Below, in pieces: positions 4,831 through 6,759 of a stretch of 6,759 bases of DNA (within the stretch, counting starts at the first letter, position 1; each line of letters starts with the position of its first letter). Both the position numbers and the translations under genes were made by a program. This DNA comes from Dickeya dadantii NCPPB 898 (lineage in GTDB: Bacteria > Pseudomonadota > Gammaproteobacteria > Enterobacterales > Enterobacteriaceae). The stretch is taken from assembly GCF_000406145.1 (NCBI RefSeq), contig NZ_AOOE01000047.1, positions 1-6,759 of the forward strand, given 5' to 3'. The notes beneath the pieces are model-generated. The model had not been told where the DNA came from. It ran no database searches and worked only from the letters and a program-made list of their open reading frames with translations.

Positions 4831-6759
4831 CTGTCCGATCCGTTCCCCCCCAGGCGACGGTCTGCCTGAACCTTAAGTGAAAAACCGGCGTGAAGCGCAT
4901 CATCCACGGACAGTGTAAGAGGATAATTGGTGCGCTCTTCCACCTTCAGGAGTTCGATGCCGGGCCACGGGTCTTCGGCGGCATCGGCGTTTGCCGGTGT
5001 AACATCATGACGATAGTTCAGCAATGCGCTGAATAAGGGCTGCGACGCGGCAACGCCACTGCATTGCTGTGCCAGCGTCAGCGAGGCGTGCTCATGGGCC
5101 AGCAGGTCGGCCAGACGGCGATGCGTCTGATCGAGCGCGGCGCGGACGGTGATATCGGCCAGCGTCAGTCGCAGCGGCAGGGTGTTAATAAACAACCCCA
5201 GCGCCTGTTCGCGACCGTCTTGCAGACGGCCCAGCAGCATGGTGCCGAAGACCACATCATCACGACCGGACAGCGCACCGATAACGTGGCCCCAGGCCAG
5301 ATGGAACAGACTGGCGGCACTGATGCCCTCTTGTTGCGCCTGCCGGCGAATGCGTCCGGCCAGTGTGTCCGGCAGCGGCAGGATGGCTTCATCCATATCG
5401 ACCAGCGCGGTCAGGCCGCCGGGCAGGGTGGGCTCTTCCACTTCCGCCAGTTGCTGATGGAAAAAGGCTTTATCGTCAGTGGCGGCGGCTCTGGCCCGTA
5501 CCTGTGCGACGTGATTACGGAAGGGAATCGATGCCGACAGTTGATCCCATTCACCGCGCTCGTCCGCGTGTATTTCATCGAGCAGGATAGCTAGCGTGGT
5601 GTGATCCAGACACAGGTGATGGTATTGCAGACACAGCAGCCAGCGGTCATTGGCTTCATCATTTGCCATCAGCAGGTTGAACAGCGGTGCCTGACGCAGA
5701 TCCAGACGGCACGGTTTCATACTGAACAGCTGATCGGCGGCGTCGCCCGCAGTCGGACTCAGGTGCACCTGCGTTGCCGTCAGTTCGGCACGACGTAACA
5801 CCACCTGTACCGGTTGCGGCAAGCCTTCCCAGCGCACGGCGGTGCGCAGAATATCGTGACGGGCAATCACGCGGTTCAGCGAGGCGATAAACGCCTCCAG
5901 TCGCTGTCGTGTTGCAAATGCCAGCAGTGAACTGTTCAGGTAAGGATCATGCGACTCCGCCAGCAGGTAGTGATACAGCACGCCTTCCTGTAACGGGGTC
6001 AGCGGGTAGATATCCTGAATCTGGCGGACGCCATCGGGGACACTGGATACAATCCGATCAATGTCCTCCTGCGTCAGTTCAAGTAACGGCAGCATGGCCG
6101 GTGTAATGCGCTGACTGTCGGCGGTAATCCGGTTTTCCGGTATCGCCGTCTGTTCAAAACGTTCAATCGTCGTGGCAAGCTCCGCCAGCCTGGTGTGCTC
6201 AAATACCGCCCGCACCGGGACATTCAGGCCCTGACTCTGCAGTGCGGCAATCAGACGCACCACCAGCAGGGAATGACCGCCGAGCTCGAAGAAATGATCC
6301 TGTCGCCCGACGCGCTCAATGCCGAACAGGCTCTGCCAGATAGCAGCCAGAGCCTGTTCGGTCTCGCCCTGCGGGGCTTCGTAGCCGGTGCGGACAAAGG
6401 CGCTGTCGTCCGGGGCCGGTAAGGCCTGGCGATCGAGCTTGCCGTTGGGCGTCAGCGGCAGCGCATCCAGCCGCACAAAGGCCGACGGCAGCATATAGTC
6501 CGCCAGCTGCTGCGCCAGCGCCTGACGCAGCCCGGCGGGTTCGGGGAGAATACCGGCTTCCGCGACCAGGTAGGCCACCAGACGCCTGTCACCCGGGCTG
6601 TCTTCGCGTGCAATCACCACCGCTTCGCGCACGCCGGCGCACTGCACCAGACACGCTTCGATCTCTCCGGGTTCGATACGGAAGCCCCGGATTTTGACCT
6701 GGCAGTCATTACGACCCAGGTATTCGATCGTGCCATCCGGCAGCCAGCGTCCCAGGTCC
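4827..6759 (-). CDS. Non-ribosomal peptide synthetase, 5'-partial reading frame: A-domain C-terminal part, T (PCP) and C domain. It ends at TGA 4829..4827, just after a homopolymer frameshift.
   Basis: This is the ORF-track frame (606 aa). I also checked the same frame from 6647 up to 6758 and found no stop, so it is truncated by the window; the 'M' at 6647 is an internal GTG Val. Motifs seen: A8 [21 protein letters not shown]9 LADYMLP, A10 NGKLDR, T core FFELGGHSL, and C motifs [35 protein letters not shown]. Confidence 0.9.
4845..4851. repeat. 7-nt homopolymer (C7 on the plus strand, G7 on the coding strand) at the point where the NRPS frame changes
   Basis: Plus strand 4841-4852 reads cgttcccccccа-equivalent 'cgtt ccccccc a'. 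The upstream frame reads CTG GGG GGG AAC. The downstream frame reads GGG GGG GAA over the same bases. Confidence 0.95.
4845..6014 (-). other. Condensation domain 1, dual-E/C-like clade with non-canonical His motifs. Its last helix is encoded in the other frame, downstream of the frameshift.
   Basis: Motifs seen: [23 protein letters not shown] (C1 region, from 6014), [22 protein letters not shown] (5595-5621), [32 protein letters not shown]. Confidence 0.8.
6156..6365 (-). other. Thiolation (PCP) domain of module n
   Basis: The sequence reads [42 protein letters not shown]... The phosphopantetheine-attachment Ser codon is at 6270-6272 (plus-strand gga, which reads TCC on the coding strand). 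Confidence 0.9.
6263..6495. repeat. Inter-module direct repeat, module-n copy (A10 / A-T linker / N-terminal half of T)
   Basis: 6263-6422 matches 3027-3186: 160 bp with 13 mismatches by hand alignment, including exact runs of 40 bp and 56 bp. 6427-6495 matches 2-70: 69 bp with 3 mismatches, including a 51-bp exact run. Confidence 0.9.
6429..6759 (-). other. Adenylation domain, C-terminal subdomain only (module n): A8 to A10
   Basis: A8 [20 protein letters not shown] lies at 6657-6718, [10 protein letters not shown] follows, and A10 NGKLDR lies at 6429-6446. The specificity pocket lies outside the window. Confidence 0.9.

Follow-up and report, generated by a model that had tools for sequence, protein, structure and literature searches.

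Probable gene conversion tracts between modules of one nonribosomal peptide synthetase gene in Dickeya dadantii

The window analysed here, 6,759 nucleotides of a contig of Dickeya dadantii NCPPB 898 (NZ_AOOE01000047.1, positions 1 to 6,759), is the minus-strand coding sequence of a single nonribosomal peptide synthetase (NRPS) gene, in which Pfam places adenylation (A), thiolation (T) and condensation (C) domains in the order A(end)-T-C-A-T-C-A. Parts of its modules are joined by stretches of exact nucleotide identity, and the comparisons below make it likely that gene conversion, a non-reciprocal form of homologous recombination, has copied these stretches from one paralogous module of the gene to another. 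As a finding this is ordinary in kind, a clear new instance of a known phenomenon, here in an uncharacterised Dickeya NRPS. The window aligns at 98.6% nucleotide identity to nt 8985-15743 of the gene at locus L002 of the complete genome CP051429.1; this gene encodes a full orthologue, P0128 (5899 aa), with the architecture (C-A-T)x5-TE-TE, where TE is a thioesterase domain. The three modules that a sequence-only reading of the window had numbered n, n+1 and n+2 are therefore modules 3, 4 and 5 (M3, M4 and M5). All features described below lie on the minus strand unless stated otherwise.

Two of the exact matches link M3 with M4, at 56 of 56 nucleotides (3131-3186 and 6367-6422) and 40 of 40 (3027-3066 and 6263-6302), and the third links M3 with M5 at 51 of 51 (2-52 and 6427-6477). 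All three had been reported in the sequence-only reading, and they hold, as do the peptides quoted with them, including the 30-residue peptide of the A-T linker and the start of T that is identical in M3 and M4. The exact matches are embedded in longer imperfect repeats, one of 280 nt at 86% identity (3016-3295 against 6252-6531) and others in which 4-137 matches both 3193-3326 (75%) and 6429-6562 (68%); the direct repeats of the window are spaced ~3.2 kb apart. When the codon-aligned A-tail/T regions were shuffled by column (n=5000), neither the 56-nt run of M3-M4 nor the 51-nt run of M3-M5 was matched once (0/5000 each). The runs of third codon positions, 18 for M3-M4 and 17 for M3-M5, were reached in 22/5000 and 0/5000 shuffles, and the control pair M4-M5 showed nothing unusual. 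The three matches are confirmed as real and chance is excluded; these are sharp-edged blocks of identity between paralogues.

It had been proposed that one cassette is shared by all three modules. For M3 and M4 this stands, as the A-T linker and the T domain in its first half are common to both, in a cassette that we call type II (6264-6425 in M3, with the blocks at 6367-6422 and 6263-6302, and 3028-3189 in M4, with those at 3131-3186 and 3027-3066) and that has a mutual identity of 91-93%. It does not extend to M5, which shares with M3 only the A10 segment (2-52 in M5, 6427-6477 in M3). A different cassette, type I, is found in M1, M2 and M5 with a mutual identity of 94-99%, and in relatives the A10 block of M5 runs into the type I linker common to M1 and M2. 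The A-domain tail of M3 from A8 to A10 (6438-6759) lies within a larger block that is near-identical in M1, M2 and M3: against the modules of L002 it is 98.8% identical to M1, 98.4% to M2 and 99.1% to M3, but 59% to M4 and 54% to M5. M3 thus matches M5 at A10 because its A tail is of the M1/M2 type and because M5 shares A10 together with the type I cassette with M1 and M2. Past the cassette the T domains become module-specific (second half of T3, 6159-6263; second half of T4, 2923-3027), a divergence that the sequence-only reading had also seen. The second half of T3 is 30-34% identical to its paralogues and 81-95% to its orthologues, and the signal there turns to orthology.

What follows A10 of M5 beyond the left edge of the window can be read in three relatives (L001, L002 and L003, with identities of 98.6-99.4% among themselves or with the window). 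All three continue with ALPAPDQ(G/S)AVVSRGYEAPAGEIETALAQIWQ, the M1/M2 cassette type, and then with a T domain and two TE domains. A prediction that the linker of M3 and M4 would recur left of position 1, followed by a T domain, is thus borne out for the T domain and the six residues ALPAPD, while the remainder of the linker is of the M1/M2 type in these relatives.

The blocks in the window are one corner of a gene-wide mosaic. Overall pairwise nucleotide identity among the five modules of L002 is only 50-62%, and yet M1, M2 and M3 share two stretches of 96-100% identity, one that spans the C-A linker to motif A3 and one that spans ~A6 to A10, on either side of a specificity core that is 30-60% identical. 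For C domains and A-domain cores, most pairs have an identity of ~30-60% (C2-C4 and C3-C5 reach 70-80% in places). Exact direct repeats of 40 nt or more number 33 in the gene, and the longest measures 332 nt. The same block layout is present in four independent assemblies (the window, L001, L002 and L003), one of which, L002, is a complete genome. This layout bears on a second proposal of the sequence-only reading, that whole modules were recently duplicated in tandem and that the identical stretches are the parts that have not yet diverged. The modules do share ancestry, with C2 resembling C4 and C3 resembling C5 at 55-80% nucleotide identity, but divergence between modules is nowhere near uniformly low, and the blocks of 96-100% identity directly adjoin stretches of 30-60%. 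The blocks moreover pair different modules in different places (M3 with M4; M3 with M5; M1, M2 and M5 together), dS between M3 and M4 is high even in the conserved A8 motif, and duplication cannot yield paralogues more similar within a genome than orthologues are between genomes in two lineages, as described below. We reject recent whole-module duplication as very improbable.

Silent sites set the blocks apart from their flanks. Between M3 and M4, divergence at synonymous sites (dS) is 0.15-0.23 in the linker and 0.25 at FFELGGHS, and between M3 and M5 it is 0.00-0.06 at A10, whereas M3 and M4 have a dS of 0.7-2.7 at the highly conserved A8 motif, with a divergence at replacement sites (dN) of 0.07-0.08. 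The dS of the blocks (0.00-0.25) is below that of equally or more conserved flanks, and conservation of the amino acids is therefore no explanation for the identity; the comparison of dS between modules that had been suggested along with the blocks came out lower in the linker. Strong purifying selection, acting on amino acids together with codon use or an RNA or DNA signal, might in principle keep sequences identical with no exchange at all, and the blocks do overlap the conserved core motifs A10 and FFxxGGxS, in cassettes with a GC content of 61-71%. It is at odds with the high dS of the more conserved A8 motif and with the behaviour of the cassette, which differs by 16-22% between genomes, at silent and replacement positions, while remaining 89-91% identical within a genome. 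An Rfam scan of the window matched no family, the nucleotide skew is not unusual, and we find this explanation barely credible.

The unit composed of the cassette, the second half of T3, C4, A4, the second cassette and the second half of T4 also occurs in Dickeya oryzae ZYY5 (L004) and in a Reinekea metagenome-assembled genome (MAG; L005). Across these genomes the two parts of the T domain have opposite histories. Within a genome the copies of the 162-nt cassette are 91% identical in D. dadantii and 89% in the Reinekea MAG, while orthologues of D. dadantii and Reinekea are 78-83% identical; the M3 cassette taken by itself has 91% identity with the M4 copy, as against 83-84% with the orthologous cassettes of the Reinekea MAG and D. 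oryzae. Over the next 35 codons of T, within-genome copies fall to 30-34% and orthologues stand at 70-95%. Between D. dadantii and the Reinekea MAG, informative sites in the cassette group the copies within genomes at 17 positions, by orthology at 2 and crosswise at 0, and the corresponding counts in the next 35 codons are 2, 39 and 1, a reversal with p = 7e-11 by Fisher's exact test. The switch maps between window positions 6276 and 6255, inside GGHSLLVV. For this pair of genomes, paralogues are closer to each other than orthologues are, up to a defined point in the T domain.

A shared unit of this kind could also have been imported horizontally as a T-C-A-T exchange unit that already carried similar linkers at both ends, with no intragenic exchange afterwards. 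The unit, from the cassette to the second half of T4, is present in three different assembly lines, the A domain upstream of it differs in D. oryzae ZYY5 and in the Reinekea MAG, and in the latter the module concerned is the last before the TE domains. Import by itself leaves unexplained the lineage-specific substitutions found in both copies within each genome (17 versus 2 sites) and the junction alleles that vary among near-identical strains, and as the whole explanation we regard it as improbable; import and later conversion could both have occurred. The scaffold (13130 bp) of the marine Reinekea sp. MAG is of interest on its own account, as it encodes a module 78% identical in amino acids to Dickeya M4, followed by two TE domains, which points to horizontal transfer or a binning error.

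The edge of one tract varies between strains. The window and L001 differ at 90 alignment columns, four of which (6428, 6432, 6435 and 6437) fall within 10 bp at the A10 junction of M3, and at each of these four the M4-type base of L001 is replaced in the window by the M1/M2/M5-type base. Over this junction (6428-6437) the window reads CTC GAT CGC CAG, the M1/M2/M5 state, and L001 and L002 read GTG GAC CGC AAG, the M4 state. There are three junction alleles in proteins: KVDRK in P0128 and in P0001, a partial D. dadantii NRPS with 99% identity to the window protein (2253 aa once its frame is restored, see below); KLDRK in P0123, a 5588-aa protein from a complete D. dadantii genome whose junction was read at the protein level only; and KLDRQ in the window. 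The K/Q codon of the junction, Q111K, is the sole residue that differs between P0123 and the window protein in 2253. Elsewhere in the gene, M1 has M4/M5-type 'PSAY' or 'MVPSAY' alleles in some strains, and a GGC/GGT variant is found in one strain in M3 and in a second strain in M4. Such clustered polymorphisms carrying the bases of paralogues are the marks of intermodular exchange as recent as the divergence of the strains, although single sites among them may be polishing artefacts.

The repeats themselves raise the question of whether assembly or polishing merged reads from paralogous modules and so produced false identity or false junction alleles. Draft assemblies break at the repeats, the window has a homopolymer indel of the sort typical of sequencing error, and the modules of one protein from a 'complete' genome, P0126, are in a scrambled order, which might stem from the repeats having been traversed wrongly in assembly. 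The block structure nonetheless recurs in the window, L001, L002 and L003 and, in diverged form, in D. oryzae and the Reinekea MAG, and the KLDR junction allele is common to the window and the independently assembled P0123. We judge a chimera to be unlikely as an account of the block structure, and possible for single junction bases and for the module order of P0126.

P0126 (WP_284603811.1, from a complete D. dadantii genome) begins with M1 and M2, which are followed by C3, an A domain whose core is that of M2, the latter half of T1 and then C2, after which it is truncated; this order was read at the protein level only. Every module switch in it falls inside a shared identical block, and it reflects either real module shuffling or a wrong assembly path.

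On the gene conversion reading, exchange would start in sequence that is alike in all modules, namely A10 (NGKxDR), the A-T linker and FFELGGHS, and would homogenise the interchangeable parts, which are the tail of the A domain, the A-T linker and T in its first half. The tracts would stop where modules have to differ, and this applies to the C domain, to the A-domain specificity core and to T in its second half; sharp-edged blocks would be the result. The sequence-only reading had described the blocks as sharp-edged and mosaic and had proposed intragenic gene conversion or recombination; the description is supported, and the dS contrast, the site counts and the strain polymorphisms with paralogue bases make that proposal the best explanation. 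Direct observation covers the blocks, the lower divergence at their silent sites, the signal that reverses at GGHSLL and tract ends that vary by strain. A RecA-type pathway would be the presumed mechanism, selection may be what sets the tract ends, and the donor copy in each event could be assigned only by inference.

Several points weigh against this interpretation. The 64 nt that separate the 56-bp and 40-bp blocks are ~20% diverged, with a dS of ~1.0 between M3 and M4, so one has to assume two or more short tracts, or a single one that was overwritten later. The quartet of D. dadantii and D. oryzae copies splits 2, 1 and 1 sites, too few to be informative, and the two D. oryzae cassette copies are just 82% identical, so that homogenisation would be uneven across lineages. 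D. oryzae and the Reinekea MAG have other A domains upstream of T3, and orthology there holds only from ~A10 onward. In assemblies this rich in repeats, single-base junction variants could be polishing or mapping artefacts, and the direction of transfer and the recombination pathway are both inferred.

Chi octamers (GCTGGTGG) are present on the coding strand at 6260-6267, 3336-3343 and 2133-2140, and the first overlaps the right edge of the M3 cassette, where identity ends. The count of 3 compares with 0.45 expected, and 2/200 shuffles reach 3, a nominal enrichment. Chi is common in enterobacterial genomes, so we give this enrichment little weight, and a role of Chi sites in seeding exchange is speculative. 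Three further Chi sites, in reverse orientation, lie where the N-terminal part of the A domain forms identical blocks in M1 to M3 (L002 gene nt 1440, 4689 and 7872).

A more far-reaching reading is that this Dickeya NRPS, probably associated with an integrative conjugative element, is actively reshuffling, with the network of identical blocks, possibly aided by Chi sites at block edges, driving both micro-conversion and module-level rearrangement between strains of one species. The order C3 / A(M2 core) / T1 / C2 in P0126 is a candidate example. We put this forward tentatively, as doubtful; if it were true, closely related strains would make different peptides.

The assignment of the gene to the NRPS family is straightforward. 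Each of the four domain types, Condensation, AMP-binding, AMP-binding_C and PP-binding, has Pfam matches that exceed the cut-off, the domains are ordered as several C-A-T modules, and the core motifs HHxxx, NGKxDR and GGHS are present in the window protein. The coding sequence is divided between two frames, frame -2, open over 4830-6758, and frame -1, open over 1-4872. The upstream part (4830-6758) encodes the end of A3 (AMP-binding_C, ~6438-6665), T3 (PP-binding, ~6165-6356) and most of C4 (Condensation, ~4866-6017). The downstream part (1-4872) encodes the end of C4, A4, T4 (PP-binding, ~2929-3120), C5 (~1570-2865) and A5 (AMP-binding, ~427-1509, and AMP-binding_C, ~13-252) as far as motif A10, and leaves the window at position 1. 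On the plus strand, antisense open reading frames at 988-3093 and 3259-4014 have no Pfam match and were taken as spurious.

The division of the frame falls within C4, where an apparent 1-bp deletion at a run of seven G (4845-4851) is followed by a stop at 4827-4829; this TGA overlaps an ATG (ATGA). One added G restores the single frame of 2253 aa. L001, L002 and L003 have eight G at this site, D. oryzae has GGGCGGTG, and P0001, P0123 and P0128 continue across it uninterrupted. The run of seven reflects an error of sequencing or else a pseudogene peculiar to this strain. Strain lineages are split by two 9-bp tandem indel polymorphisms: that at 553-561 gives VPIVPI or VPI in A5, and that at ~1797 gives LTP or LTPLTP in C5. 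The window has the same allele as P0123 at both.

At locus L002 (flanks 1-10000 and 27701-37700), Trb/VirB conjugative type IV secretion genes lie directly upstream of the NRPS gene, and ParE toxin, H-NS and Rhs/PAAR genes lie downstream of it; the NRPS gene is probably cargo of an integrative conjugative element. A scan that covered each species by one genome had no D. dadantii locus among its matches, the nearest being those of D. oryzae, the Reinekea MAG and Dyella humi; the gene therefore looks accessory in D. dadantii and would belong to an accessory island.

The gene offers a natural example, at single-nucleotide resolution, of two patterns that NRPS engineers use, the XUT breakpoint in the T domain and the swapping of A-domain cores. 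The ends of its tracts are still variable among strains ~1.3% diverged at the nucleotide level, which makes D. dadantii a species in which ongoing exchange could be tracked, and the junctions at A10/NGKxDR and GGHS|LL are concrete ones that nature has tolerated. The same repeats break short-read assemblies of the locus. A warning of misassembly given in the sequence-only reading is well founded, since the draft contigs L001 (at its start), L003 (at its start) and L004 (at both ends) terminate in repeated blocks, at ~A6/A7, in the cassette or at the GG of the T domain. With a length of only 3904 bp, the D. oryzae contig L004 is bounded by repeats on both sides. The module order in some deposited genomes, and in P0126 especially, warrants caution.

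Among known systems, GRINS are likewise repeats within assembly-line genes that are proposed to promote gene conversion; the intense skew of GRINS is absent here, with GC and AT skew within |z| <=2.2 in both cassettes. M4 (~2929-6017) is a SolG-like C-A-T module that aligns end to end with the SolG model NF041803, its best NCBIfam match. Frame-restored M4 scores 1035 bits, below the curated cut-off of 2200, and is an internal module of a five-module protein, whereas SolG is a stand-alone C-A-T protein. SolG of the solanimycin pathway is proposed to add serine and perhaps to dehydrate it, and the dual-clade C domains found in SolF, SolG and SolH have an altered catalytic motif (PMC10204066). 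The C domain of M4 likewise has an altered motif, HHLCLDH instead of HHxxxDG. Its N-terminal dual-E/C motif is degenerate, whereas C2 has FHHLLQQQGD.

Concerted evolution by gene conversion is known for repeated genes in bacteria (Santoyo and Romero 2005, as cited in a passage of PMC9205934). The Dickeya gene is similar in that paralogues within a genome are more alike than orthologues, over tracts that are short and mosaic; it differs in that the repeats are segments within a single open reading frame and are homogenised only in pieces of subdomains. Swaps of the A core in which both C-A linker and A-subdomain are retained have been described as the chief route by which NRPSs diversify, also within a genome, as for mcyB/mcyC (Baunach et al. 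2021, PMC8097286), and A-core subdomain swaps or intragenomic NRPS recombination are also credited to Calcott et al. 2020 in a passage of PMC9205934. M1 to M3, near-identical from the C-A linker to A3 and from ~A6 to A10 around a variable specificity core, fit this pattern. The interface between the A-subdomain and T is reported to be rarely used as a junction (PMC8097286), and it is there that Dickeya M3 differs, with its junction at A10, where a tail of the M1/M2 type is set onto a linker of the M4 type at a position that varies between strains.

The closest parallel is the natural recombination breakpoint within the T-domain core motif FFxxGGxS, 'around two conserved glycine residues', upstream of which T tracks the history of the A domain and downstream of which it tracks that of the C domain, and which underlies the XUT engineering units (Bozhüyük et al., 10.1101/2022.12.02.518901). 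The switch in the window, between 6276 and 6255 in GGHSLLVV, is a change of history within this same motif. Bozhüyük et al. applied a phylogenetic hidden Markov model to many NRPSs and found mostly exchange between clusters, while here the exchange is among modules of one gene, appears as exact nucleotide tracts and is variable between strains of one species.

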